Source: a virus
Virus record (IMG/VR): IMGVR_UViG_3300042894_005670
Strand: one strand, 5' to 3'
DNA length: 64,000 nucleotides
Shown here: positions 2,711 through 58,979 of the stretch, one piece after another
Layout: every line of letters starts with the position of its first letter
Position numbering within the stretch: the stretch's first letter is position 1
Translations under genes and position numbers: made by a program
Notes under the pieces: generated by a model
Databases searched by the model: none
What the model was told of the DNA's origin: nothing
What the model saw: the letters and a program-made list of their open reading frames with translations, nothing else

Positions 2711-2976
2711 GGGACAAATACATTATCGCTACCTTGCACTATGCTATGACCACAACTGTTACCACTACCTACTTTAAGTACAGGTGACCCTTCACAAATT
2801 ACAGTGGGCGAAGCAGAAGTAGTGACTGCATTAATATGCTTACCTTTCCTTTTGTGTGGCGTAATTGAACTTACGTGTAATCCAACAGGTTTACCATTAC
2901 AGTAAACATTGGAAGCACCACGTATAATTGCACCACCTTCTTGATTGGTATCACCTTTTCTGCTTAAACTTGGCAT
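2707..2976 (-). CDS. PAAR-type spike tip protein
   Basis: 89 aa with RKGD, NVYCNGKPV, H..H, CGH and GSDNVFV pattern of PAAR/gp5.4 proteins. Confidence 0.85.
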   Translation of the reverse strand: MPSLSRKGDTNQEGGAIIRGASNVYCNGKPVGLHVSSITPHKRKGKHINAVTTSASPTVICEGSPVLKVGSGNSCGHSIVQGSDNVFVP

Positions 2977-2981
2977 CGATA

Positions 2982-3287
2982 CTATCCTAAAATAACTTTT
3001 CTCTGTGTTGGGGTAGCAATACCTGTTGTTGCTTCGATATATTTTACCCTAATATTTTCATCTGTAACACCATAAATTGCTACATTATCTATATTTATGA
3101 CTAAATTTTTGTCATGATCTGCGGTGAATAAGCTTGGCACAAGACCCATGCCTTGGGGTCCTGGGGCTACGCTTACAGGTTGTGTCACACTAACACGATC
3201 AACCCCAACTTCTACAACCTTAGCAACTAACTCCTCACCACTATTCATTTTAAAACTATATACTTCATTAATTTCTATGTATTTCAC
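2982..3287 (-). CDS. Conserved phage protein, possibly Sm-like fold
   Basis: KMNSGEELVAKV start and YIEATTGI end are typical of small T4-like phage Sm-like proteins. Confidence 0.5.
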   Translation of the reverse strand: MKYIEINEVYSFKMNSGEELVAKVVEVGVDRVSVTQPVSVAPGPQGMGLVPSLFTADHDKNLVINIDNVAIYGVTDENIRVKYIEATTGIATPTQRKVILG

Positions 3288-8070: not shown

Positions 8071-10830
8071 TTATGAGGTTGTTTGTCTTTTACCAATAAC
8101 GAAAAATGTGCTTGCTGCAGTACTAAACACGTTGAATGTATATACATCATATCCATTTGCAACAGGCGTAGGAGCACCTGATACCCAAGAAATGTTTGCG
8201 TTGGAACCATCAATTTGAATAACATTTGCTACAGAAATTGCAGTATTTGGGTTTTTAACGACTGCACTTAATTCCATGGTAGTACCTATTGGCATTACAT
8301 TAGACAAATTAGTAATATTAATTGTAAAGTTTGCGTTACCACCTGATTGAAATAGATAATTAGTTGATGATGCAGCATTGAAAATTAAAGTACCAATTGG
8401 AGCAAGTAAGAATATATTTGCATGTTCAACCGCTGAAGTTGTCACCGTACGATCAAATATACCAAAATCTGATGACAAATTAGGACTAGTAATATTGCCA
8501 ATATTCGCATAATTAGCAGAAATCACATTAGCTGATATGTTTGATACATTAGATAAATTGTTTACCGTTAATGTACCACCAATAGCTAAGTTAGTTAATG
8601 TACCTACGCTTGTAATATTGGGTTGGGCATTGCTATTTGCGCTTAAGGTTGCAGTGAGGAAACTGCCTACAGTTAAATTACTGCTAATTAAACCATTACC
8701 TGTGCTTAAAAAACTACCGTTACTATAAAAGCTAGTTGTACCTGTGTTACCAACAACTAAATTACTTAACTGTCCAATAGCAGTAACATTAGGTTGATTA
8801 GCAGTAATTAATTGACCACTTAAACCATTACTAGCTATAACGACATTAGCAGTTAAATTAGCACCAATATTAGCGTTAGTGTTTACCGTAAGTGATACTA
8901 AGTTACCAATGCTTGTAATATTTGGTTGTGATGCAGTGACTAAAGGTCCAACAATAGCGTTAGCATTAACTACATTAGAAAATACGTTTGTTGCATTTAC
9001 TGTATTGTTTACAGTTAAATCTACATTAGTGGCTATACCTAAATTACCAACTTGTAAAACATTGGCTGTACCACCTACACTAAAAAATATTGTACCATTT
9101 ATTGCAGGAATGCTTATATTGCTATTGCCATTTGCATAAAGACCAACAATGTTAGGTGCACTGAGATTACCTGAAAAGTTACCTGTACCTGCTACGTTAA
9201 CACCTGTGCCTGTAATATTAGCAACCGTATTACCTGCTGATATAAAAGCAATATTACTATTTGATGTTAATTGTATCCTGCTATTACCATTACTTAAATT
9301 ACCAATAAAATTAGCTGCCGTAATGTTTTGTGTAACAGTAACAGAATTTGCTATAGCTGTTGTTGCAGTAAATCCATCTGATGAAATGACTATAATGTCA
9401 GGTTGACCATTACTAGTAAACGTTATTGTAGAATTAGGTTGAATAACAATATTGCTATTACCATTAACCACACTAGAAGTATTAAAATTACCTGATATAG
9501 TATGTGCAACAATGTTTCCACTAAAGTTTGCATTGACACCATTTAAATTACCACCAATTGTCAAATTGGCAGCAATATTAGCTGTATTTGAAGTTATAGT
9601 ATCATTAGTAATTGTGGTAAGATTAGCATTTCCTGCAGTAATACGAGTAACAGTGACGTTACCATTTGATATAGCAACGTTGCCAAATGTTACATTGCCA
9701 TTGGCAGTTAACGCACCACTTAGAGATAAACTATTGCCACTTACGTTACCATTGACCGATAAATTTGCATTACTAATAGCTAAATCATTTGCGTTAGCAG
9801 TAAGTACAGCATCACCCAAAAATATAGATGAGTTACTTAAATAAATGTCTTTCCAACGATTAGTATTATTACCTAAATTATAGGTAACATTGGCGTTAGG
9901 GATTAAGTTTGATACGACATTCGTTACAGCAATTGTATTAACAGTAGTACTATTGGCTATGGTTAAATTACTAGCAGTAACATTTCTTGTGGCAACAACA
10001 TTACCTTCACTGATAAACACATTAACAGTAGCGTTTCCAACATTAGCGTTTGAGCTAAAATTAGCATTTGCTGCTGATACAAAACCTTGTGCAGTAAGAT
10101 TTCCTGTTAGGGCAATGCCTGTTGAATTTGCCCATACATTATAATTTCCTACGATTAAATTACCCGCTGTATTTGATCCTGAACCATCATTGACTTCAAG
10201 TGTTGTAGCTGCACGTAATACTAGATTAGCTACAATAGTATTAGATACAATGTTTGCGTTGACATTAGCTTGATCTACGGTAATTCTTGTGGCAAATATT
10301 TGCCCGTTGGATATATTGGCATTACCTGAAAAGTAAGCATTTGTAATATTTGCATTACCCATAGTTGCGGTATCAGTAACGCTTAAATTAGATGTAACAG
10401 TGCTTCCTGTCACAACTAATGCTGAATTTGAACTATAAAAATTTAAATTTGCGCTAGCATTTAAGGCACCTGCATTATTATATTGTATTTGATTTGTTGA
10501 GCCTGCTACTGTGCCTGCTACTGCGTTAGGTACAGCACTCCATGTTAATACACCGTTACCATTGGTTTGCAAAAAGTAACCATTATTACCCCCACCAAGT
10601 GAAAAGTTTGCCACATTGGATATGGTAACATTGCCACTTAAATCAATAGGGCTATATTTTGTAAGAATTTCTGTATTATTTGGATCAGGATCGCCTACAC
10701 GATTTGCGTCATTGCCAATAAATAGTCTGCGTTCATCGTCTGCCCAACCAAATTCGCCTGGGCTAAGTTGAGGTAAATCAGAGACATTACCCGTTCTTAC
10801 CTGTATTTTGCTTATTTGAATGATTGCCAT
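8071..10830 (-). CDS. Tail-fibre/adhesin-like virion protein with Mtd-N-like N-terminal domain
   Basis: N-terminus IQISKIQVRTG..LPQLSPGEFGWA.D.RRLFIGN; about 800 aa N/T/S/G/V/I-rich with QPNITSxG and NGNSNI repeats. Confidence 0.75.
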   Translation of the reverse strand: MAIIQISKIQVRTGNVSDLPQLSPGEFGWADDERRLFIGNDANRVGDPDPNNTEILTKYSPIDLSGNVTISNVANFSLGGGNNGYFLQTNGNGVLTWSAVPNAVAGTVAGSTNQIQYNNAGALNASANLNFYSSNSALVVTGSTVTSNLSVTDTATMGNANITNAYFSGNANISNGQIFATRITVDQANVNANIVSNTIVANLVLRAATTLEVNDGSGSNTAGNLIVGNYNVWANSTGIALTGNLTAQGFVSAANANFSSNANVGNATVNVFISEGNVVATRNVTASNLTIANSTTVNTIAVTNVVSNLIPNANVTYNLGNNTNRWKDIYLSNSSIFLGDAVLTANANDLAISNANLSVNGNVSGNSLSLSGALTANGNVTFGNVAISNGNVTVTRITAGNANLTTITNDTITSNTANIAANLTIGGNLNGVNANFSGNIVAHTISGNFNTSSVVNGNSNIVIQPNSTITFTSNGQPDIIVISSDGFTATTAIANSVTVTQNITAANFIGNLSNGNSRIQLTSNSNIAFISAGNTVANITGTGVNVAGTGNFSGNLSAPNIVGLYANGNSNISIPAINGTIFFSVGGTANVLQVGNLGIATNVDLTVNNTVNATNVFSNVVNANAIVGPLVTASQPNITSIGNLVSLTVNTNANIGANLTANVVIASNGLSGQLITANQPNVTAIGQLSNLVVGNTGTTSFYSNGSFLSTGNGLISSNLTVGSFLTATLSANSNAQPNITSVGTLTNLAIGGTLTVNNLSNVSNISANVISANYANIGNITSPNLSSDFGIFDRTVTTSAVEHANIFLLAPIGTLIFNAASSTNYLFQSGGNANFTINITNLSNVMPIGTTMELSAVVKNPNTAISVANVIQIDGSNANISWVSGAPTPVANGYDVYTFNVFSTAASTFFVIGKRQTTS

Positions 10831-13957: not shown

Positions 13958-14356
13958 TTACGCAAATGTTGCGCCTGTTGCTACAGAAATATTTGCTGTG
14001 AATGAACTATTTGCTGCTTGAATGCCATTTGTGATAGCTGTATCAAGTGTAGATGTTGTCCATGCACCAACAGGATACACAGCGATTGCTAATGTATCAT
14101 CAGTTGCGTTGTTGTACTGATATAAATGAATGGTAGCTAATTGCTCAATTGACTGAAATACTGCTGTTGCATAATCAGCAATTTGTGAACCATTACCTGT
14201 TACTGTAAACATCTGTAAATCAGGACCTTGTGGTTGTACTGCTACACCACTTGTCATTGCATTGATGTTACCACTATTTGTGTATGCGTTACCTGTACCT
14301 TGATCGTATACGGCTACGGGTTGAAAATCACCATTAACTCTTGTAAAACCTGCCAT
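13958..14356 (-). CDS. Small putative structural protein (possible head decoration)
   Basis: A/T/G/S-rich 132 aa; own ATAAATA box, strong AAGGAG and own terminator. Confidence 0.5.
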   Translation of the reverse strand: MAGFTRVNGDFQPVAVYDQGTGNAYTNSGNINAMTSGVAVQPQGPDLQMFTVTGNGSQIADYATAVFQSIEQLATIHLYQYNNATDDTLAIAVYPVGAWTTSTLDTAITNGIQAANSSFTANISVATGATFA

Positions 14357-14441: not shown

Positions 14442-15404
14442 CTACTTTTTGGCTTGTGCTTGAAAATTAGCAACACTTGAACGTATATCTTTTACTATTT
14501 CATTATAATCACTTGGATATTTACGTTTCATATAAGTTAAAACGTTTAACATTAGGTTGTTTAACTCATCTGCATTATAATAGTTGCTATTCATGGCACT
14601 GACAACACGATCTAAATGAGTTGATCCTACTGAACTTTGCCCTACACCACTTGAAATACTACCTCTTGATCTACCCATGGCTTTCTGTTTATAGATATAA
14701 TCAAGTAATTTTGCAGCATTTTTATACGCCATGTCACTTTTACCACTTGCAAATTCTTGATCTATTGTGGTAGCTATTTGTTTTAATTCAGGAACCTCAT
14801 TTAAATTAAATTGTATAACTTGATCAATGTAGTTAGTGAAGGAGCCTGGGTCAACGACAGTTTGTTCATATAAAGCTGATTCTAATAAGGTATACAAATC
14901 ATCAAATCTACTTTCTGTCATACCTTGTGCTTGTCTTTTACGAATAATATCAGCAGTTGATGAGGTGTAGTTGCCTTGGGGAGGGCGACCTGGGCGCATG
15001 CTAGCTTGTGCTGCCTGTGCTGCTGCTTTACGTCGATCAGCGTAGCCTGGTAGCTCGGTTGGTGCAGCCTGTAGGTTTGGTGTAGGTAACTGTGTACCTG
15101 TGGGAACTGTTCTTTGTTGTACCGTTGTTTGCTGTGCTTGGCGTTGTTGTACTTTTGGCGTTGGCTGAACAGCAGGTTGTGATGCAGGTTGTGATGATGG
15201 TTCATCTTGTTTTTGTGCTGTCATATAATTTGGATCAGCTTGACGAACTTTAGCTGCCCATGCAGGATAACCTTTTAGTGCAGCACTAATCTTAGACTGT
15301 ATAACTTTTGCATCTAACTGCGAGGTTTTTGGATCTCGATACGCCATTTGCTGACGTATCGGATTAAAAATAGCTTCTAATCCATCTTCAATCAGTTTAC
15401 TCAT
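14442..15404 (-). CDS. Hypothetical protein with Q/P/A-rich linker
   Basis: 320-aa ORF. Confidence 0.6.
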   Translation of the reverse strand: MSKLIEDGLEAIFNPIRQQMAYRDPKTSQLDAKVIQSKISAALKGYPAWAAKVRQADPNYMTAQKQDEPSSQPASQPAVQPTPKVQQRQAQQTTVQQRTVPTGTQLPTPNLQAAPTELPGYADRRKAAAQAAQASMRPGRPPQGNYTSSTADIIRKRQAQGMTESRFDDLYTLLESALYEQTVVDPGSFTNYIDQVIQFNLNEVPELKQIATTIDQEFASGKSDMAYKNAAKLLDYIYKQKAMGRSRGSISSGVGQSSVGSTHLDRVVSAMNSNYYNADELNNLMLNVLTYMKRKYPSDYNEIVKDIRSSVANFQAQAKK

Positions 15405-15645
15405 CAGCAGAATTCTTTCTAAAACTTTTTGAGAATTTTTCGCTATCTCTACTTTTTATAGCAACTAACAGCTTTCGTTCTAAAACTTCAGCCTGTTCAG
15501 GCGTAAAATTACGCTGTATAACCTCTAAAAGGTGTATAGCACTTGTTATAATACTATTGGCACGACTTTCGATTATATACTTAGTATCACGATTTTTTGC
15601 CAATGATTCTAATTCTTCTAATAGGCTACGAGTCTTTTTTTCCAT
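15397..15645 (-). CDS. Conserved hypothetical phage protein
   Basis: 82 aa, KTRSLLEEL start; ATAAATA box upstream. Confidence 0.65.
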   Translation of the reverse strand: MEKKTRSLLEELESLAKNRDTKYIIESRANSIITSAIHLLEVIQRNFTPEQAEVLERKLLVAIKSRDSEKFSKSFRKNSADE

Positions 15646-45511: not shown

Positions 45512-45543
45512 AGTAACAATACCTTTATAGTATTTATTTCATT

Positions 45544-46289: not shown

Positions 46290-46496
46290 TTAATTATTTT
46301 TAATTAAATCATCCAAATATGCTCTTGCCGCACGATAATGTTCAACTTCAAAATTAAATGTTTTCCATTCGCCACTAGCACATTGTGCAGTAAATGAATA
46401 ACTTCTTAATGGTTGTGCCATAGGTGGTGGTGCCATAGGTGCTTCGTTTGATCCTCCAACTAAACTCATGTTATTATTCTCCTTATGATGAGCCAA
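46290..46496 (-). CDS. Hypothetical protein
   Basis: ORF track; likely start MSLVGG after AAGGAG. Confidence 0.45.
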   Translation of the reverse strand: MAHHKENNNMSLVGGSNEAPMAPPPMAQPLRSYSFTAQCASGEWKTFNFEVEHYRAARAYLDDLIKNN

Positions 46497-48672
46497 AAAA
46501 CTTATTCATCAAAGCTTTTTGTTTTTTAGGTTTTGCCCCAAGTACAGGACTAATATTAGCCACCTTATCAGTGCCACTTAAGTATTTTGGGTTACGCTTG
46601 TCCTCTTTAGTATAACGTGGGTCTTTAGGGTCATACTCAGTACCAAATGCACTCTTAACTTGTGACGAATTGAATATGATATAAGACATATCTATATAGT
46701 CAGCTTGTTTTTGCAAATACTGATGCGCTTCTTGTTCAGCTTCTTCAGGTGTATCGCCTTCACCAATAGGTAAAGTAGGCATAACATTATCAGGTAAATA
46801 TGCTACGTATTTTGATCCTTCTTTTTTAATCGTAAAATTAATGCGCTCATCAGGTCGCAATGTTCGCTTACCTTCATTAGTATTACGATATTGTATACCA
46901 TCATATCCCGCATCAAACAATGAACGTGCTAATTCAGCATAGATTGTTGCTTTACAGTCATCCCAATCCATATCACGATCCCTACGAATTGCTTCAAGTT
47001 CGTTATATTCTTTTTGGTTAATAATCTTTTTCTTAAATAAAAAATTCATAACTTGACGTAAATGCTCTTCATCAGGACCAAATATGTCAGGCATAGTAAA
47101 AGGGTTTGTAATCTTTAAAAATACAGGAATTACACGTGCTCCACTATATTTGGCAAACTCATTAGCTGCTTCACGATTGCCAAAATGTATACCAAAATCA
47201 CGATATAAATTTTTAAACGTTGAAAAATCATTAGATGTACCATGATAAACAATCATAGGAGCACCATTACTATCAACTACTTTACTATTGCCAAACCATG
47301 CTCTTAAATTTTCCTCACGACCTTCTACTAATTCTTTTAAAAAACTCATGGACTCTTTGTTGATATTAGGATTAGTTGGGTCAAATGTACCATCATTGTA
47401 AACGGATTTGATTTGCTCAGGGCGTAATGCTATGTACCACGTTTTGGTTCTGCCTTTTATAACGAAGCCATCATTACCGTTTTCTGTAGCCTTTTTAAGA
47501 AGATTACGCACTTGGACGTATCCCTTACTAGAATTAGACATTGACACCCATTTGTCCACGGATATAGAAAGCGGATTTTTAATAGATAAGAAAACGGGGA
47601 TGATGTTGGCACCTTCTTGTTGAGCATACCCGCCAGCATCCGAGGCTGACGTTGAGAAAAAGATGCCTAGATAATCAGTTGCATTTGGCACACTGCTGCC
47701 TTTTGGCGCAGACTTGTCAAACGCTGCAAAGTTTCTGAGCGTACCGTGATACACCACTAACGGATCGCCTCTTTCATCAACCACCTTACTATTACCAAAC
47801 CACTTATTAAAATTATTTTTTCTATCATTACTATCTTCTTTAGTAATGTCAGGTTCATATTTACCAAATGTACCTACATTATATATAGACTTGATTTGAT
47901 ACTGTTCAAATGGACGATAAGTTAAAATAATCGGTGTGCCCTCAGCACCAAGTTCTAACTCTTTTCCATCACGTGGTTCATATTTTTGGGAACCTGCTTC
48001 AAAAACATCTTTTAAAATGACACCATCATATCCCATACCTTGTAGGTAACTTACAATATCTTCACTATCTGCAATAGTATATGTATCTATAACCGTATTG
48101 TCTAGTGCATCCTCAATAGAACTAATATCGTCTGCTTCACCCCATGTGTCAATTTGATCTGAAAGGTCACGAAATCCTTTTATTCTAAAACCATCATCGT
48201 CATAAGCATTGATTGAAAATCTTGCGCCTGTTTTGTATATAATTTCATCTAAATCATATATCATATAGGACACATCTCTCCAACCTAATTTTTTACGTCC
48301 ACCATCAGGTACATTTAGATCACTAGGCACCGTATTAATAAAATCTATTAATGATATTGTTTCGTTATAACGGGTAAGATCTAATGGTTTAACAATTCGT
48401 AAATACGCTGCGATTACAGTAGAACCACTACCATATTGTCTTGTGTCTAAATGTCTAGAGTATACACTAGCTGCTGCAGGGTCATTAGTAAAAGATGGTA
48501 CTGCACGACCTTGAGTTAATTTAAATTCTGTGGCAGCAGGTCGCTTACGTGTACCACGATATACAACAAGTGGGTTGCCATTACTATCAACCACTTTACT
48601 ATTACCAAACCAACTACGAAATGCTTTTGTCTCTCTAGCTTTTTGGTATTCTAATAATTGTCCAATTTTCAT
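46483..48672 (-). CDS. Protein with three tandem ADP-ribosyltransferase-like (ART-PolyVal-type) domains
   Basis: Three WFGNSKVVD..G.P..VY[RH]GT starts, each with [YF]L.I..P, G.DG and Q[IV]KS. Confidence 0.75.
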   Translation of the reverse strand: MKIGQLLEYQKARETKAFRSWFGNSKVVDSNGNPLVVYRGTRKRPAATEFKLTQGRAVPSFTNDPAAASVYSRHLDTRQYGSGSTVIAAYLRIVKPLDLTRYNETISLIDFINTVPSDLNVPDGGRKKLGWRDVSYMIYDLDEIIYKTGARFSINAYDDDGFRIKGFRDLSDQIDTWGEADDISSIEDALDNTVIDTYTIADSEDIVSYLQGMGYDGVILKDVFEAGSQKYEPRDGKELELGAEGTPIILTYRPFEQYQIKSIYNVGTFGKYEPDITKEDSNDRKNNFNKWFGNSKVVDERGDPLVVYHGTLRNFAAFDKSAPKGSSVPNATDYLGIFFSTSASDAGGYAQQEGANIIPVFLSIKNPLSISVDKWVSMSNSSKGYVQVRNLLKKATENGNDGFVIKGRTKTWYIALRPEQIKSVYNDGTFDPTNPNINKESMSFLKELVEGREENLRAWFGNSKVVDSNGAPMIVYHGTSNDFSTFKNLYRDFGIHFGNREAANEFAKYSGARVIPVFLKITNPFTMPDIFGPDEEHLRQVMNFLFKKKIINQKEYNELEAIRRDRDMDWDDCKATIYAELARSLFDAGYDGIQYRNTNEGKRTLRPDERINFTIKKEGSKYVAYLPDNVMPTLPIGEGDTPEEAEQEAHQYLQKQADYIDMSYIIFNSSQVKSAFGTEYDPKDPRYTKEDKRNPKYLSGTDKVANISPVLGAKPKKQKALMNKFFGSS

Positions 48673-49109
48673 CCACGGTCTTTTTTCAATATGCTACGAA
48701 GCATCCATGAATGTTTTGCGTGACTATCAATACGTCCTGCTATAAAATCAGCAATACCTTGCTCATCTTCTGCTTCACATTGATGGAATGTTTCTTTTAA
48801 TAATACAATAATCTTTTGATTATCTTCGTACAATTCTGCCATCATTAACTCAGCACGTGGTATTTGTTGTTGCTCATCAATAATACTTAACTCTTGATAC
48901 CTCGTCATGGATCCTGGTGCATATGAGTCTAACTGTCGAATTATTTCAGCTAGTTGATCAATACTGCCATATACTTCATTATACAAATCACCTAAAAATG
49001 CATGATATTGTGGAAAGTTTGGGCCTTCAATGTTCCAATGAAACCCTGCTGCCTTTATATAAAAAGCAAATGATGTTCCTAACACTTGCTTTAACTTATC
49101 TTTTAACAT
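48669..49109 (-). CDS. dps: Dps/ferritin-like DNA protection protein
   Basis: HWNIEG.NF.QYH, DQLAE and H.K..WML. Confidence 0.93.
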   Translation of the reverse strand: MLKDKLKQVLGTSFAFYIKAAGFHWNIEGPNFPQYHAFLGDLYNEVYGSIDQLAEIIRQLDSYAPGSMTRYQELSIIDEQQQIPRAELMMAELYEDNQKIIVLLKETFHQCEAEDEQGIADFIAGRIDSHAKHSWMLRSILKKDRG

Positions 49110-51555
49110 TCTTTTTACCTTCTAGCATATTCTTTTGTGCTTCGTGACCTTCCATATACTCTGCTACATCTTTTATTAGTTCATCAGCACGTGTAATGTG
49201 GTCGGAGACCCATCCTGGCAAGCCTTGTCCTTCACTTCTACCTTTAATTATCTTAGCAAGTGACATTGAACTTTTTACGGTAGATAATAAACTGTTTACT
49301 GCCATTGATACTTCATGGTCAGGTTCCATATGCTTAGCTTTAACTACATCACCACGCATACGCATTTTACCAGGCATCACTATGAGGTCTTGTTCACTTA
49401 AATCAGCTTCCTTCAATGTGTTAGGTATAGCACCCGTATTGTTTAAGAAAAACTGATCTGTTACACCTGCTTTAATTTTTAAATCTCGCACTTGCTCTCT
49501 ATACTCGTTAATTTCTTCCGCAATAGCACGACCTAATATTTGACCAATTTGTTCAGGTGTTGCAGGTACATCAGGTCCTGTACCACCAAATTTTGTATTT
49601 ACTAACCTAGGGAAGTAATTTCTAACAACACTAGCTAAACGATTAACTGTTTCACTCGTTAAAGCTTTGTATTGTTGTATATAATTATCATATGAAATAT
49701 TGTTAGCTAATGCTTTACCACCTGCGGCTATCGCTGCACCTGCCGCTGCAGCTTTACCTAAACTTCCTAAAAATCCTCTACGTGCAGGATCAGCTTCATT
49801 GATACTTTCTTCATCAGAAAATTTTGCATCACGTAATGCATCTTCAAAAATTTCATCTAATCCATAAATTGCACTTTCTAATTCATGCTTGGCTTCATAA
49901 ACACGGCTATTATGATAATTAAAATCATCCATGTCTAATGCATAAGCTTTTACTAAATTTTCAATTTCTACCATAATTTCATTTACGGTATTATCGTATG
50001 AAATTCCTTTAGTAATTTTTCTAGCTTGCATTAAGGCACGTTCCAAATCATCTGCACGACCTTCGTTAATGCTTTCGTTCTTAGATTTATTACCCCAATT
50101 CTTTGCACCTGCTTTACGACATTTAACTAATGCACCACTAGCATATGCACTAGGCCAAATTTTGTAACGACTTTTTACCTTATGGTAGCATGCATCTTTT
50201 TTACCTTCAGTAAATAATGCTTCACTGACCATTTCACCATTACATTGTGGGCAAATACCCTCTTTGACATAATACTCAAGACTTTCATTCTTAGTCTTGT
50301 TGCTTACCATATCAGCCGCACCTTGACGTTGTGGGTTTGGATCTTCACGGCGTTTTTTACGTACTGCTGCTGCAATAGCTTTTTTACCACCACTAGCACG
50401 TAATGATGCTGCTTTTTCTTTACTTAGGCATTTTGGTTTACCTTCACCTGCTTTACGTTCTCCACACTTACCAATACGCTCACCTTTAGTATTGTAGCGA
50501 TCCCATCCACCGCCACCTGCACCACCTTCACCGCCTTTACCAAACCATGCACGTAAATCTTCGCTTAATTGTTCAGCAATTTCACTTTCACTGAATTCTT
50601 TGCCAACTAGTTTATCACCTGTAACACCTTGAATTAGTGCCCATGCACGTTGAAATTCTTTTTCTTTAATTAATTGATTTAGGATTTGTTTTTGACGTGG
50701 ATCTGCCATTTTAAAGAATTTAACCATTTCCATTGCACCGATATTACCTTCATAACCTAGTTCCATCAATGCTTCTTCATTAGTATGAGATTGGTATTCA
50801 TCATAATCCATATACATATCGGTATCACGATCATAATACTTACCTTCTTTAGGATCGTAATAAACAATCTTACCTGATTTTAAACGAAATGGTCCTTCTA
50901 ACCCTTGGTCTGACATATCTGTATAACGTTCTTTATCAATTGGAGTTGATATTTTCCAACCTTCCGCCACACCTTGCGTCTCTGGACCATCCATCCAACT
51001 CTGCGTTAGTTTAATCATATCTAACGGAATGCGTTTTTTATCGTGAATTTCCATTGCCTTCAATCTTGCGGATTCTTGTGATGGGAACGGAATGGCATCA
51101 AACTTCTTATCTCTAAGAACTTTACCTTTAACTCTTACATACCAGTTTTCAGAGCCTTCCGCCACACCTTCTTTCCTAATACCAAGTGTACTCGCAGGAT
51201 TACCTCCACCAAACATACTAGCAAATGCATCACTTGCTTGTTGTTTAGTATCTGCTTTTTGTTGTTTTTTTACTGATTTTTTACTCGTAACCTTTTTAAG
51301 CATTGTTTTAAACTTATCACCATCCGTTGTTGGATTAGTAGCTTCTGCCACCGTCTTTTTCTTTTTGCTACCTGCCCAATTACCCCACTCTGAAGCACTG
51401 CGCTCTACACTATTCATGTATTTTTTACCACTATCTGCAGTCTCATCCGTTTTTTCACGTTTTACTGTTTCTTTGAATAATGGTGTGGCAACAGTAGCAA
51501 CTGAACCTGCTGTCATTTCATTAATTTTATCTAAGGTTTTACGAATATCTGACAT
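49096..51555 (-). CDS. Modular 819-aa protein; putative processed internal-head polyprotein
   Basis: About 10 unrelated short modules separated by VAE/INE/LSE/LKE-type linkers; ATAAATA box upstream. Confidence 0.6.
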   Translation of the reverse strand: MSDIRKTLDKINEMTAGSVATVATPLFKETVKREKTDETADSGKKYMNSVERSASEWGNWAGSKKKKTVAEATNPTTDGDKFKTMLKKVTSKKSVKKQQKADTKQQASDAFASMFGGGNPASTLGIRKEGVAEGSENWYVRVKGKVLRDKKFDAIPFPSQESARLKAMEIHDKKRIPLDMIKLTQSWMDGPETQGVAEGWKISTPIDKERYTDMSDQGLEGPFRLKSGKIVYYDPKEGKYYDRDTDMYMDYDEYQSHTNEEALMELGYEGNIGAMEMVKFFKMADPRQKQILNQLIKEKEFQRAWALIQGVTGDKLVGKEFSESEIAEQLSEDLRAWFGKGGEGGAGGGGWDRYNTKGERIGKCGERKAGEGKPKCLSKEKAASLRASGGKKAIAAAVRKKRREDPNPQRQGAADMVSNKTKNESLEYYVKEGICPQCNGEMVSEALFTEGKKDACYHKVKSRYKIWPSAYASGALVKCRKAGAKNWGNKSKNESINEGRADDLERALMQARKITKGISYDNTVNEIMVEIENLVKAYALDMDDFNYHNSRVYEAKHELESAIYGLDEIFEDALRDAKFSDEESINEADPARRGFLGSLGKAAAAGAAIAAGGKALANNISYDNYIQQYKALTSETVNRLASVVRNYFPRLVNTKFGGTGPDVPATPEQIGQILGRAIAEEINEYREQVRDLKIKAGVTDQFFLNNTGAIPNTLKEADLSEQDLIVMPGKMRMRGDVVKAKHMEPDHEVSMAVNSLLSTVKSSMSLAKIIKGRSEGQGLPGWVSDHITRADELIKDVAEYMEGHEAQKNMLEGKKNVKR
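50960..51170. repeat. 16-bp direct repeat CCTTCCGCCACACCTT (50960-50975 and 51155-51170) bounding a 65-codon module
   Basis: Exact repeat; both copies encode GVAEG. Confidence 0.9.
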
Positions 51556-51599
51556 GATGGAATTCCATAATATCTAGTATTTATTCGCTATGAATTAAT

Positions 51600-53009
51600 T
51601 TAGAACTTACCTGATGGCTTTGCTATGGGTGGTATACCACTACGTTTAATCTTACCTAAACCTAATTTTATAGCATTTTGTCTAATACTATCAGGTTTAA
51701 TATCAACCGTTAATGCTGTTTTAAATCTTGGATCGTTTTTTTCTGCTTCACTAGGGATATATCCTGAAGCCTCATTAACATTAAATGTAGGATCAACTTT
51801 CTGACGTTTCATTCCTTTGGGTTGGTTAGGGTCAAGAGGATCAATATCCGTAGTAGATAAACCTGTTGCTTCTAAATCATCAATATATTTGTGTTCAGTA
51901 TCTTCATCACCAAATGTTAATATGGTGCTAGGTGGTCCTTTACCAAAATCATGCTTACCTAAACCCTTAAGATTACTAATATGTTGTCCTAACTTATACC
52001 AATCATACACATCACTTACATCTACTCTAACCGTACCTTTTGGCATAGTGGGTTTAAACTCAGGACCAGGTGGGTTTCCGTTAGGGTCATAATCATCACG
52101 TAATTTACTATAATGTTTTCTATTTTTAGCCAAGTTTTTGTATGCCATTTCAGTAGCTAAACTACGCACACTAGTATTTGCCATTTCAAACTTTATACCA
52201 CGCTTTAATTCACTTATGATATCATTTCTACTACAACCATGCATCTTTGCTAATTCACTAATAGTATATACAGGTTGTTCAACATTTTTACCAACCTTTT
52301 GCTCCATACTCATCTTTTCACTATGTATTTCATTATAAGTATCACGCAGACGATGCAATAAACCACTAGTACGGAACGCTTTAAATGCTATATTTTCAGG
52401 AGAAAATTCACCTTGTGCATCTAAACCTGCTTTTCGATATTTTCTAATTGTATCTAGTAAGTCTTCAATCTTGTCTATATCTCTAGCTTGTAGTGCTAAT
52501 TCAGCTACTTGTGCTAATTTTTCAAACTTTAATTGACTTGCTGGTTCGTTGATATCAGCAACACGTTTGGTAGGAAATTTTATCCAACGATCTTTTAGTA
52601 CACTGTACTCACCACGACTAACAACAGGATCAGCCGTATCTTGTACGTATAATTCTACTTCATAACCGCCTATAGTAATATCATGTTGCAAATTCCATAT
52701 GATTTTTTTACTATGAAATAACTCACTATAAATTTCATCATTTTTTAATTTCTTAATATCAACTAAAATATGTAAGTCAATATCACTATGTGGCGTATAG
52801 GTATATGAAGCATTGCTACCACTTAGTGTAATATCTTTAACATCTATATTACTTACACCAAGATGCTCCATAAAATCATCTGCAATTTCTAATAACCGAT
52901 CACGCACAGCAGGAATCATGTGTTCATCCCTAAAAATAGCAGGGTTTAACTGATCATGAAACTGTATAGCGTTTGATAATTTAAATTGTTCTAATTCTTT
53001 TAAATTCAT
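51600..53009 (-). CDS. Pol-beta-superfamily nucleotidyltransferase with appended C-terminal modules
   Basis: LSGSNA...SDIDLH and VELYVQD; start MNLKELE. Confidence 0.75.
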   Translation of the reverse strand: MNLKELEQFKLSNAIQFHDQLNPAIFRDEHMIPAVRDRLLEIADDFMEHLGVSNIDVKDITLSGSNASYTYTPHSDIDLHILVDIKKLKNDEIYSELFHSKKIIWNLQHDITIGGYEVELYVQDTADPVVSRGEYSVLKDRWIKFPTKRVADINEPASQLKFEKLAQVAELALQARDIDKIEDLLDTIRKYRKAGLDAQGEFSPENIAFKAFRTSGLLHRLRDTYNEIHSEKMSMEQKVGKNVEQPVYTISELAKMHGCSRNDIISELKRGIKFEMANTSVRSLATEMAYKNLAKNRKHYSKLRDDYDPNGNPPGPEFKPTMPKGTVRVDVSDVYDWYKLGQHISNLKGLGKHDFGKGPPSTILTFGDEDTEHKYIDDLEATGLSTTDIDPLDPNQPKGMKRQKVDPTFNVNEASGYIPSEAEKNDPRFKTALTVDIKPDSIRQNAIKLGLGKIKRSGIPPIAKPSGKF

Positions 53010-53022
53010 AGTTGTATTTAGC

Positions 53023-53056
53023 AAAAAAACCGTGATAGAATTTCTCCTATCACGGT
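53023..53056 (-). terminator. Rho-independent terminator
   Basis: ACCGTGATAG/CTATCACGGT stem followed by T7. Confidence 0.85.
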
Positions 53057-54826: not shown

Positions 54827-55510
54827 TTATGCTACTTCAGGAGGTTTTTGTATTGAGTATTCCTTTTTAATACATTCATGAAAAGTCATATAAAACAATG
54901 ATTGCATATGCTCATCGTCATAATCAAAAAATAAATCTCCACCAATCCATCGACCATTTTTATTATTTGCATCCCAATGCATATAAAAATTAAAATTAGG
55001 AGATGGGAAAAAATGTTTTTTATACTTTGTAAAAAAATCACGTAATTCAATTAATTCGGTATGAGAATACACCCTTGACTTTAAATAGATACGAAAATTA
55101 TGCTTTGGGTTTTTATGATATATAATTTCTTTAGGTCTTGAAAAATTTACAAGTACTTCTTCAACAGTGTTAGGTTGACCTAAAATTTTAGCTAAATCTT
55201 CTATAATATCATAGCGTGTTGAATATACAGTAATACTATTAACATGTTTTAATGTTTTAATATAATCATCATTTGCTGATTTCCATATAAGAAATTTCTT
55301 AATTTCAATTAAGTTTTTAACATAAGCTTCACGAAGATTAGAACGAAGTAATTCGCTTTGTATTATTTCTAAATCATAATTTCTATGGATACCAATTTGC
55401 TTAAGGTCAAAACAAACTTTATATTTGTACTTGTCATACCATAACCAATGTTGATTTACATTAGGTTGCAGTGTTGTATAGCTAAATCCTGATAATACCA
55501 TCTGTTCCAA
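54827..55510 (-). CDS. Hypothetical protein
   Basis: 227-aa ORF. Confidence 0.55.
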   Translation of the reverse strand: MEQMVLSGFSYTTLQPNVNQHWLWYDKYKYKVCFDLKQIGIHRNYDLEIIQSELLRSNLREAYVKNLIEIKKFLIWKSANDDYIKTLKHVNSITVYSTRYDIIEDLAKILGQPNTVEEVLVNFSRPKEIIYHKNPKHNFRIYLKSRVYSHTELIELRDFFTKYKKHFFPSPNFNFYMHWDANNKNGRWIGGDLFFDYDDEHMQSLFYMTFHECIKKEYSIQKPPEVA

Positions 55511-57758
55511 TTACCTCATCCTTATCAATTGTTTTTTCTGCTGTAAAATTAATTTCATCTCCGTTTAGTATAACGTGAACATTAGAATCTTTTAATTTTT
55601 CAAATAAAATCTTTTTACTTAACGGTACTCTGATAAGTTCATCAATCTTACGAGCAAGTGGACGTGCACCCATTTTATCGTCATAACCAACTTTAGCTAA
55701 GTGCTCAACTGCTTGCTCACTAATCGTTAAATTAATCTTGTGCTGTTTAAGTAATTGTGCTTTTAACTCATTAACAAATTTAATAACAATTTTCTTAATG
55801 GCTAACATGTCTAACTTACTAAACTTACATACTAAATCAATACGATTACGCAGTTCAGGTTTGAAAAACTCTTTAAATGCTCGGTCATCTTCACCTACTT
55901 TTTGTGTTGACCCAAAACCAATGTTTGATTTTTCACTATCTCTAGCACCTAAATTACTAGTCATAATAATGATTGTGTTTTTAGCATCTACCGTTTTACC
56001 ATTAGTGCTAGATATTCTACCCTCATCCAATAATTGTAAGAATAAGTTATACACATCAGGGTGTGCTTTTTCAACCTCATCAAACAATAATATAGCGTAT
56101 GGGTTTTTACTTAGATCATTGATAATTTTTCCACCACCAAGATTACCTTCACCATAGCCGACATAGCCTGGGGGCGCACCAATCAAAGCAGCTACGCTAT
56201 GTTTTTCTTGATATTCACTCATATCATAACGTAGCAATGGCATGCTTAAATGTTCGCTTAATAATCGAGCAGTTTCAGTCTTACCGCTGCCTGTTGGTCC
56301 TAAGAATAAGAAACTTGCCATAGGTTTCTTTTCATTAGAAATACCCGCAAAGCTAACATATATTCTATCTAAAATTTTCTCTAATGTAGCATCTTGCCCA
56401 TAGAGTTTTTGTTTAATATTTTGATCTAAGTTAGTCATTTTTTCTGATGAATCATTAGTAAGTTTGTCCGCAGAAACGTTACACATTCTAGTGACTTGTT
56501 CTTTAATACTATTTTCATCAATAATTGCACCAACATTGTTTGCAGCACGTTGTTTAGCACATGCTGCATCGAGTAAATCAATGGACTTATCAGGATTTTT
56601 TCTATCATGAATATATCTTGCGCTCATAGTGACTGCCTCAGTAATAGCATTAGGCATAATTTTTACACCATGAAATGACTCAAGACGTTCACTTAATCCT
56701 GTCAAAATGTCAATAGTAGTTGCATTTGTTGGCTCATCAATAGAAACACGGTAAAATCGACGCATTAAAGCACGATCTTTTTCAAATGATTCGTAGTATT
56801 CTTCCCACGTGGTACTAGCAATTACCTTCAAGTTACCTTTTGTAATTGCAGGTTTAATCATATTGGCAAAGTCTACACTGCCACCACTACCATTTCCACT
56901 ACCACGCATAGTGTGTGCTTCATCTATGAATAAGATAGCTTTAGGTTTGGTTGCTAATGCTTCTAAAACGTGTTTAACTTTTTCCTCAAAATCACCACGA
57001 TACTTACTACCTGCAAGTAGTGATCCAATTTCTAATGAATATACTTCATGGTCAAACAAAAATGGTGGTACATTTTTGTCAAGAATTTTTTGTGCTAAAC
57101 CTTCAGCAAGGACGGTTTTTCCAACGCCTGGGTCGCCAACAAGTAATACATTAGATTTGAAACGTTTAGCTAATACATTGACAATATCATTAACTTCACT
57201 TTCACGCCCAATCAATGGCTCAATTTTATTACGTTTGGCTAACTCAGTTAAACTAATCGTAAACTCATCTAATACTTCATTAGCTTGTTGCTCAGTCATT
57301 TTTCCACTCTTACTACTTTTGTGTGCTTTATTCCAATAAGCAATAAATTCATTCCGTGTTACGCCCCATTTCAATAAGAAATAATGTGCATGGCTGTTAG
57401 TTTCCTGTAAAATTGAAATATATATGTCTATTAGTTCAATTTGTCTGCGTCCTGTGAATAATACTTGTGTTACTGCACGATTAAAAACACGCTCAAGTGA
57501 ATGAGTTTTCTTTGGTGCTACAGGAGTACCATCTTCATTTGGAGACACTTTTAAATTATTGACTGAATCTAAATATTCATCAACTTCTTGAATAAGTTGT
57601 ACTGTATCGACACCAAATTCATCTAGATGTTCCCTAAATGATTCAAAGGTAATCAAACTTAACAAAGCATGTTCTAATGTTACATAACCATGATATCTGC
57701 TTTTTGCAATCTCAATGGCATGCTCAATTAATTTTTCAATTTCAGGGTTGTTTATCAT
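55482..57758 (-). CDS. clpA: Clp/Hsp100 ATPase (ClpA-like)
   Basis: Clp-N domain, two Walker A motifs (GDPGVGKT, GPTGSGKT), KYRGDFE, GAPPGYVG and IGF loop. Confidence 0.92.
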   Translation of the reverse strand: MINNPEIEKLIEHAIEIAKSRYHGYVTLEHALLSLITFESFREHLDEFGVDTVQLIQEVDEYLDSVNNLKVSPNEDGTPVAPKKTHSLERVFNRAVTQVLFTGRRQIELIDIYISILQETNSHAHYFLLKWGVTRNEFIAYWNKAHKSSKSGKMTEQQANEVLDEFTISLTELAKRNKIEPLIGRESEVNDIVNVLAKRFKSNVLLVGDPGVGKTVLAEGLAQKILDKNVPPFLFDHEVYSLEIGSLLAGSKYRGDFEEKVKHVLEALATKPKAILFIDEAHTMRGSGNGSGGSVDFANMIKPAITKGNLKVIASTTWEEYYESFEKDRALMRRFYRVSIDEPTNATTIDILTGLSERLESFHGVKIMPNAITEAVTMSARYIHDRKNPDKSIDLLDAACAKQRAANNVGAIIDENSIKEQVTRMCNVSADKLTNDSSEKMTNLDQNIKQKLYGQDATLEKILDRIYVSFAGISNEKKPMASFLFLGPTGSGKTETARLLSEHLSMPLLRYDMSEYQEKHSVAALIGAPPGYVGYGEGNLGGGKIINDLSKNPYAILLFDEVEKAHPDVYNLFLQLLDEGRISSTNGKTVDAKNTIIIMTSNLGARDSEKSNIGFGSTQKVGEDDRAFKEFFKPELRNRIDLVCKFSKLDMLAIKKIVIKFVNELKAQLLKQHKINLTISEQAVEHLAKVGYDDKMGARPLARKIDELIRVPLSKKILFEKLKDSNVHVILNGDEINFTAEKTIDKDEVIGTDGIIRI

Positions 57759-58188
57759 ATTGTTTTTCCAATTTTCTATCCATCATAGTAATACCATCTA
57801 AATGATCCACTTCATGTTGTATAACACGTGCTTCTAACCCACTAAATGTTTCAACAAACATGTTACCATTTGCGTCATTGTAAGATAGCACAATAGTTTC
57901 AGGTCTGTCAAGTTCCACTGATTCATTAGGATAGCTTAAACATCCTTCAAGATAAGGTGTACTACCTTGTGCATCTTGAATCATAGGATTAAAAAAAGCT
58001 TTTTCATTATTATCTACTGCCATAACAAAAACCCTACTGCGTAATCCAACTTGATTAGCAGCAAGTCCAATACCACCACTTTCATGCATAAATTTTAACA
58101 ACTGCTTAGCTAATAATTCGTTTTGTATGGGGTATTTGAAATCAACAGGTTTAGTTTTTTGATATAATGTTCTTTTAGTTAGCTTCAT
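57742..58188 (-). CDS. def: Peptide deformylase
   Basis: [15 protein letters not shown] and QHEVDHLDG. Confidence 0.95.
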
Positions 58189-58979
58189 TTCGTATTTAAT
58201 ACACGTTCTTGCTCTAAAACTCTGATTAAATTGTCACTTATTTCTTCAGGCATAATGGGTCTAAGTATAACATACTGATCACCCAATCCAAAATTATTGG
58301 ATAAACCATGACCACCTAACCTTAATGTTGCATTAGGTTTAGCTCTTGGTTGTATGCTGATTTCTAGTTCTTTACCATATATCGTTGGTACGATAATTAA
58401 CGAACCTATGACTAAGTCAAAAATACTTATATCATAATTAAAATATAAATCTAACCCACGCCTTTCAAACAAAGGATGCCTATGTTGTCTATAAGTAACT
58501 TGAAGTGGTCCATCAGGCATTAACCCTTCATACTTAACAACACCACCATCGTCAATACCTTTTGGTATTTTCACTTCAAATAATTTCATACCTTGTGGTG
58601 TATTAATTTGCAAATTATGTTTATCACCTGTGGCTATTTGTTCTAAAGTGACAAATACTGTAGCGGTATATACTCGCTGCTGCGGTGGTGCATGTGGATG
58701 CCTAAAGAATTGCCCAAAAATATCATGGATATTTTGTCCGAAATGAAACTCAAAACCACCTTGTTGTGGATTAAACCCATTAAATTGTGGTTGAGGATTG
58801 TCATAAACAGCACGTTTTTGTGGGTCACTTAACGTGTCGTATGCTGCTTGTATAGTTTGAAAACGTGCAGTATCACCACCTCTGTCAGGATGGTGTTGAC
58901 TTGCTAACTTACGATATGCTTTTTTAATTTCATCAGGAGTAGCATTTTTTGCTACTCCTAACGTCTGATAATGATTCAT
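58185..58979 (-). CDS. DnaJ-class co-chaperone (CbpA-like, no Zn finger)
   Basis: J domain with HPD, G/F linker and DnaJ C-terminal domain. Confidence 0.92.

Follow-up and report, generated by a model that had tools for sequence, protein, structure and literature searches.

The 64,000-nucleotide (nt) stretch of viral DNA analyzed here (IMG/VR record IMGVR_UViG_3300042894_005670, hereafter the window) carries an 819-amino-acid (aa) open reading frame (ORF), P0001, at 49096..51555 on the minus strand, which we read with moderate confidence, from its sequence and those of its relatives, as a late-expressed cargo polyprotein, that is, a precursor probably loaded into the capsid and cut by the head protease. 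The original prediction had placed the ORF correctly, and its strand is corrected here to minus, the orientation of nearly all window genes, P0001 included. The protein consists of a 13-residue leader followed by about 10 mutually unrelated modules of 58-129 aa each. In the mechanism we propose, a T4-late-type promoter would drive P0001, and a short leader ending in [ILV]-x-E would carry the whole chain into the assembling prohead, in the manner of the capsid targeting sequence (CTS) of T4. A gp21-family prohead protease would then cut after the Glu that ends the leader and after the one in every [ILV]-x-E linker, releasing about 10 small proteins (58-129 aa), sized like the T4 internal proteins, that would remain with the DNA and enter the host together with it; one of them would expose an export signal of the twin-arginine translocation (Tat) type only once cut. 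The gene evolves as an in-frame cassette array: relatives add, drop and reorder its units exactly at the linkers or carry them as genes of their own, and the commonest linker, QGVAE followed by Gly, is also a codon-locked DNA repeat of 16-18 nt acting as the recombination joint. Packaging, cleavage and injection are steps that we infer from the features described below, and the label "effector" for the modules is a guess.

All eleven joints listed in the original prediction were found in P0001, namely KINE (residues 10-13), TVAE (68-71), GVAE (130-133 and 195-198), ALME (262-265), QLSE (329-332), ESLE (424-427), LFTE (447-450), SINE (495-498 and 584-587) and TLKE (713-716). The motif [ILV]xE occurs 21 times in P0001 against 11.5 expected from composition, about twice chance, and this raw count alone proves little about the joints; they are taken as real because they match independently defined homology boundaries. 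A word-indexed search recovered about 4,900 metagenomic proteins that have parts of P0001 in common, the best 120 of which were taken into the BLAST and 5-mer analyses. Ends of high-scoring segment pairs (HSPs) with distant homologs cluster near residues 134, 197, 255, 328, 421-445, 491-505, 581-590 and 706-715, and in an all-against-all comparison HSP ends fell exactly on the Glu of [ILVM]xE 201 times against 69 expected, about threefold more than at random. TVAE aligns with GVAE in homologs having GVAE on both sides of module 2, and in 18 homologous genes the leader ends where KINE does in the alignment; support is least precise for ALME and QLSE.

Evolution by gain and loss of modules, as had been proposed, was directly shown by this comparison, as was reordering, with homologs swapping modules at the linkers. 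By BLAST, single modules stand in different orders among the best 120 homologs, and in one reversed-order example residues 492-583, 440-501 and 315-434 of the query correspond to residues 26-121, 174-238 and 263-410 of the subject. Twelve close homologs are more than 85% identical in the parts they have in common; between the two GVAE sites these carry different, duplicated or extra cassettes, each bounded by Q-G-V-x-E-G, and residues 588-721 are present or deleted in close relatives exactly from ..INE to ..LSE. The distant member P0103 (1081 aa) is built of a dozen or more mini-modules with GVAE between them. Modules also occur outside the polyprotein. At locus L089 of the relative contig G005, positions 1474-2074 and 2746-3173 hold small stand-alone genes with near-identical 9-residue leaders ending in [ILV]-N-E, and two of these genes are single modules of P0001, each with its own leader. 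A word-indexed search for a short, stand-alone module 9 returned one 279-aa recombinant fragment only; in this metagenome fragment, P0123, the last two modules of the polyprotein are fused, precisely at the ESINE linker, to residues 1-30 of a Maf-like protein, so that here a joint has recombined with a gene unrelated to the family.

The linkers fall into several sequence classes. GVAEG is the most context-diverse 5-mer in the best 120 homologs, with 72 occurrences in 65 surroundings. A second linker, (E)SSILE followed by Gly, occurs internally and also at the extreme N-terminus of other family members, and further classes are ESINE before Gly or Ala, ESVNE before Gly, and SVDE before Ala. In the ESINE, SSILE and SVDE classes the silent sites vary while [ILV]-x-E and the small residue are kept, indicating a protein-level constraint. 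GVAE behaves differently, as 59 of 94 distinct-context GVAE linkers from viral contigs have one identical 12-mer, with the Val codon GTG used in 73% (19% baseline in the same ORFs) and the Ala codon GCG in 77% (7% baseline). P0001 itself contains two exact 16-nt copies of this codon-locked junction 195 nt apart, flanking a variable slot: copy 1 at 51155..51170 (minus strand; direct repeat D3) encodes the EGVAEG linker, and copy 2 at 50960..50975 (minus strand) encodes QGVAEG. A scan of IMG/VR for the locked 16-mer found at least 175 copies in at least 120 contigs. Among the matches listed, 164 of 175 copies are read in an open GVAE frame, and 48 of the 51 spacings, mostly 141-250 nt long, keep the reading frame as multiples of three; 35 loci have more than one copy, compared with a single such locus among the matches listed for a synonymous 16-mer. 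These results point to two layers of constraint, a protein rule at all joints and DNA identity at the commonest joint, where cassettes exchange, and suggest that conservation of the main linker at the DNA level, which the original prediction had missed, adds a recombination role to the joint. Other functions were considered for the GVAEG joint and rejected: an internal Shine-Dalgarno sequence or internal start was ruled out since no start codon follows the joint, and a 2A-like skipping signal since its motif is absent.

The leader of P0001 (residues 1-13; 51517..51555, minus strand), a putative capsid-targeting propeptide that aligns with the homologous leaders, ends in I-N-E and so has the hydrophobic-x-Glu ending, and with its 13 residues also the length (about 6-13), of leaders on T4-type cargo. 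In other contigs, 18 homologous genes start with M-K-I-x-x-I-I-x-E and continue with the same conserved first module. The leader pattern is not confined to this family, as a start of the form M-[RK]-x-x-[EDQ]-hydrophobic-hydrophobic-x-E was found in 251 ORFs belonging to 150 otherwise unrelated clusters in 1.56 Mb of related loci, most commonly as M-R-A-T-E-F-I-T-E. It follows 5.6% of N-terminal Met residues compared with 0.044% of internal ones, a 126-fold enrichment, and it resembles the ten-residue CTS of T4 IPIII (PMC8442874). Peaks of N-terminal [ILV]xE at positions 5, 19-20 and 44 came from redundant DNA-polymerase loci and were discarded.

The ATAAATA late-promoter-like box noted upstream of P0001 was confirmed at 51578..51584 (minus strand), at a distance of 29 nt from the ATG. 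In the window, this 7-mer occurs 19 times on the coding strand compared with 4 on the other, mostly 12-47 nt before ORF starts, and the polyprotein homologs in 18 other contigs have (T)GATAAATAC at the same upstream distance. The box precedes 21% of leader-bearing ORFs and 6.7% of others, in loci that are not independent of each other. ATAAATA is probably the late-promoter core of this phage, and late timing of P0001 expression is likely, judging from these sequence patterns. The same box stands before a 919-aa ORF at 8071-10830, which has no family match, and before small ORFs at 13958-14356 and 15397-15645.

Module 9 begins, directly after SINE, with a Tat-signal-like segment (residues 588-618; 49702..49794, minus strand) composed of R-R-G-F-L-G, a Gly/Ala-rich core and A-L-A. 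This segment matched the TIGR02811 Tat-target region at E 6e-5 and 23 bits, under the cut-off of 48, and had no match to the Pfam Tat model. In 15 homologs it is always internal and always immediately after [IVL]-[DN]-E. A Tat signal requires a free N-terminal position, and here the segment, which begins at residue 588, could reach such a position only through cleavage at the linker before it. For this reason, no other single observation argues as well for cutting of the joints.

A candidate for the cutting enzyme was present in relatives of the phage. In all six of the large related contigs searched (223-352 kb, four of them 95-100% complete), a Peptidase_S77 (gp21) gene adjoins a scaffold-like gene and a gp23-type capsid protein, and the capsid and scaffold N-termini of these contigs have conserved L-L-E, I-L-E and L-x-E sites. 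Cutting after Glu in [ILV]-x-E, in the prohead, is the hallmark of gp21-family proteases (PMC9026906, PMC5694885). In T4, the CTS, given for IPIII as a ten-residue string (PMC8442874), suffices for prohead loading and is removed by gp21 (PMC9026906), and Alt loses a six-residue propeptide at I-T-E and a C-terminal piece at L-T-E (PMC5694885). Residues ~290-595 of P0001 match small modular proteins of T4-like cyanophages, which are themselves strings of the same basic, Cys-containing modules. The P-SSM2 homolog is encoded between gp15 and gp16 in the late structural cluster, and in another cyanophage the homolog, annotated as structural, has virion and terminase genes as neighbors. Near P0001, at 46483-48672 on the minus strand, is a gene for a 729-aa protein containing three divergent copies of an ART-PolyVal ADP-ribosyltransferase behind an 8-residue CTS-like leader, with the third copy preceded by an apparent internal fossil leader. 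By its sequence, this protein looks like an Alt-type packaged enzyme made by fusion of leader-bearing genes.

A capsid-loaded and cut precursor is favored because P0001 has a CTS-like leader, several unrelated linker classes converge on [ILV]-x-E, the late-type box is conserved, a gp21-type protease is encoded in six of six related contigs, relatives have stand-alone leader-bearing modules, and the Tat-like signal follows a linker. Its reading as cargo is favored because cyanophage homologs lie in structural clusters and the leader-bearing triple ART-PolyVal neighbor parallels the packaged Alt. Several observations weigh against this reading. P0001 is set among replication and metabolic genes with no head cluster around it, and the head genes of the source phage are outside the 64-kb window; the head region is also absent from the 137-kb contig of the nearest relative. 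The DNA-level role of the main linker could exist without cleavage, and the P3 residue of this linker is Val, compared with Ile or Leu at the T4 sites in the cited papers. The window shows no enrichment of the exact T4 octamer TATAAATA (8 observed, 13.6 expected), and the strand bias described above is seen for the 7-mer ATAAATA only. The ORF-based statistics were drawn from related, non-independent loci. Finally, an AlphaFold2 model of whole P0001 from a 12-sequence alignment had a mean predicted local distance difference test (pLDDT) score of 38 and a predicted template modeling (pTM) score of 0.22, with islands above 50 pLDDT only inside modules 3, 4 and 9, a quality too low for judging between a continuous fold and independent domains.

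The alternative to which we give most room, while still considering it unlikely, is that P0001 is an uncleaved, beads-on-a-string protein which stays intact and unpackaged in the infected cell, with the linkers as flexible spacers and recombination joints. The conservation of the main linker at silent sites, which makes a DNA-level function certain, and the non-structural genes around P0001 count in favor of such a protein. It leaves unexplained, however, that the linkers with variable silent sites still keep [ILV]-x-E and the small residue, that N-terminal leaders end in the same motif, and that relatives have the modules as separate genes, and a Tat-type signal 590 residues inside the chain would be useless without a cut. 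In another alternative, the polyprotein is cut at its linkers in the cytoplasm by another Glu-specific protease, of phage or host, and the modules act in the same infection without being injected. In favor of this, the cell that makes the Tat-like module could export it equally well, and the genes nearby include those for a J-domain protein and a ClpB-like AAA+ protein. We consider this very improbable, as cutting at [ILV]-x-E is the gp21-family prohead hallmark (PMC9026906, PMC5694885), the leader resembles a capsid targeting sequence, and no other protease candidate was seen among the window genes. Packaging and cutting could also yield pieces that serve as structural head core or DNA-packing filler, comparable to bulk internal proteins or to the fragments of T4 gp22, gp67 and gp68, without a function in the next host. 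Six of the 10 modules are basic (isoelectric point (pI) 9.1-10.1) like T4 internal proteins, and the cyanophage homologs are in a structural cluster, both points in favor of filler. This is nevertheless rather improbable, because conserved modules, some of them Cys-patterned, move independently among thousands of proteins, one module has a predicted export signal, and cassette turnover between near-identical phages fits an arms race better.

Within the preferred reading of P0001 as packaged, cleaved cargo, a bolder form can be put forward tentatively, as a doubtful but specific proposal. This is an integron-like, in-frame cassette system in which the translated 18-nt joint would be both the recombination site of the cargo and a head-protease site, a single leader would load a changing set of proteins into the capsid, and at least one cargo would be sent to the new host's periplasm by a Tat signal activated by cleavage.

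The individual modules, all on the minus strand, follow the leader without interruption. Module 1 (aa 14-71; 51343..51516), which ends in TVAE, is the conserved first module of the gene family; it is N-terminal in 21 of 21 family members of the loci examined and also in its close relatives. A phmmer search of residues 1-71 against 1.8 billion proteins gave eight matches, five with the module at residues 1-71 and the other three in giant repetitive proteins. Module 2 (aa 72-133; 51157..51342) ends in GVAE and has homologs in P0103, P0111 and P0118, where it has GVAE at both flanks. Module 3 (aa 134-198; 50962..51156) is the variable cassette slot between the two 16-nt repeats, and comparison with close homologs showed it to be absent, duplicated or replaced. 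Module 4 (aa 199-265; 50761..50961) is acidic and beta-rich, matches phrog_13298 and was modeled at a pLDDT of 55-72. Modules 5-6 (aa 266-427; 50275..50760) match phrog_727 and contain the basic Cys-containing module common to T4-like cyanophage late-cluster proteins. Module 7 (aa 428-498; 50062..50274), with a weak DUF5872 match, combines a CxxC mini-module with a widespread WPSAYASG module and ends in ESINE; a relative carries it as a separate gene of 66 aa that has a leader of its own. Module 8 (aa 499-587; 49795..50061) is acidic and helical, and also ends in ESINE. Module 9 (aa 588-716; 49408..49794) differs in presence or absence among close relatives and is flanked by near-identical 12-nt repeats (D10) encoding x-E-A-D. 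Module 10 (aa 717-819; 49099..49407) is helical and sits near the N-terminus in many other family members.

That the modules are mutually unrelated, as originally proposed, was borne out, the best BLAST match between any two having an E-value of 0.001 due to Lys-rich composition. Searched whole and module by module, P0001 had no Pfam family above threshold, and no module could be assigned a function from Pfam, PHROGs, NCBIfam, the ESM Atlas or sequence comparison with the PDB. Among the papers searched, none mentions DUF6321.

Downstream of P0001 and apparently in the same operon are a Dps/ferritin-like gene and then the triple ART-PolyVal gene (together 46483..49109, minus strand), with overlapping gene ends. 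The Dps/ferritin-like gene (48669-49109, minus strand; PF00210, E 4e-23) is without a leader and overlaps both neighbors, P0001 at its 3' end and the ART gene at its 5' end, and is therefore apparently part of the same late operon. Further on, a 414-aa protein of the GP88 family (PF17338; 44267-45511, minus strand) has a 9-residue CTS-like leader and an ATAAATA at 45531-45537, 26 nt upstream. On the other side of P0001, a 474-aa protein (51600-53024, minus strand) has an N-terminal nucleotidyltransferase fold (weak MntA / NTP_transf_2 matches) followed by ~230 residues without assignment; its likely true start is the Met at residue 6, which opens a short leader-like peptide. A two-ring ClpB/ClpA-like AAA+ protein (55482-57758, minus strand; phrog_4871, E 8e-235) is encoded near a J-domain protein (58185-58979, minus strand), a chaperone pair that is unusual for phages.

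The window is phage DNA, with genes for a family-B DNA polymerase, a ribonucleotide reductase, nucleases, a DnaB-type helicase and a second helicase. Its polymerase shares 46-50% identity with the enzymes of two jumbo phages, Sinorhizobium Phosso and Agrobacterium Atu_ph07, and 42-43% with the enzymes of Rak2-like enterobacterial phages. The 137-kb contig of a close relative was rated 39% complete, so the genome should be about 350 kb. We take the source to be a giant (~350 kb) marine T4-related phage of the far-T4 Rak2/Atu_ph07-like group. By megablast, the 12 kb surrounding P0001 had no match in cultured phages.

If the proposed mechanism is true, T4-type capsid targeting would go beyond one tag for one protein and be a modular delivery platform in a very large and widespread group of uncultured giant phages. 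Injection as cargo would then account for thousands of small dark-matter proteins found in aquatic viromes, with the linker as a simple sequence rule for spotting it. The codon-locked joint would be a rare case of a short sequence selected for both DNA exchange and protein cutting, and P0001 would offer a natural design for loading several proteins into phage heads from one gene. None of the papers searched mentions GVAEG together with phage, and no published description of this joint system was found.

The closest known parallel is with T4 IPI, IPII, IPIII and Alt (PMC9026906, PMC5694885). P0001 resembles these in its short leader ending in hydrophobic-x-Glu, in the gp21-family protease encoded in its clade, in its small, often basic predicted products and in a putative cargo set that differs between related phages, and its leader-bearing ADP-ribosyltransferase neighbor recalls Alt. 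It differs in that T4 uses one leader per protein, whereas here one leader would load about 10 unrelated modules with putative internal cut sites, and in that the main joint is also a fixed DNA repeat for module exchange. The phiKZ-like giant phages also package many proteins that are cut after Glu, with several sites per precursor; in SPN3US and 201phi2-1 the prohead protease cuts inner-body or ejection proteins at S/A/G-x-E (PMC5694885, PMC9026906). These phages belong to another lineage with another P3 preference, discard the propeptides and keep one mature part, and have no cassette arrays or conserved linker DNA described.

Polyvalent proteins (Iyer et al. 2017, PMC5512222) likewise join many unrelated domains, 2-15 of them, in one phage or plasmid polypeptide, a range that includes the roughly 10 modules of P0001; delivery together with the DNA, and processing into units by an in-cis metallopeptidase, have been proposed for them (PMC5512222). 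A Pfam search of P0001 found none of their hallmark domains (Zincin-like MPTase, ART-PolyVal, ParB-like, LPD and others), and the link to them is the ART-PolyVal of the next-but-one gene. Unlike polyvalent proteins, P0001 has much smaller modules and is without an in-cis metallopeptidase; the head protease would process it instead, at a linker that recurs along the chain. In its shuffling, P0001 resembles the PeSL regulatory cassettes and the glycine-rich motifs of gp38 in T4-type phages (PMC2839356, PMC4122927, PMC3157838), in which short conserved DNA motifs flank swapped units, as the 16-nt repeat does here. PeSLs, however, are intergenic promoter-terminator units, whereas the P0001 motif is in frame, translated and a putative protease site within one gene.

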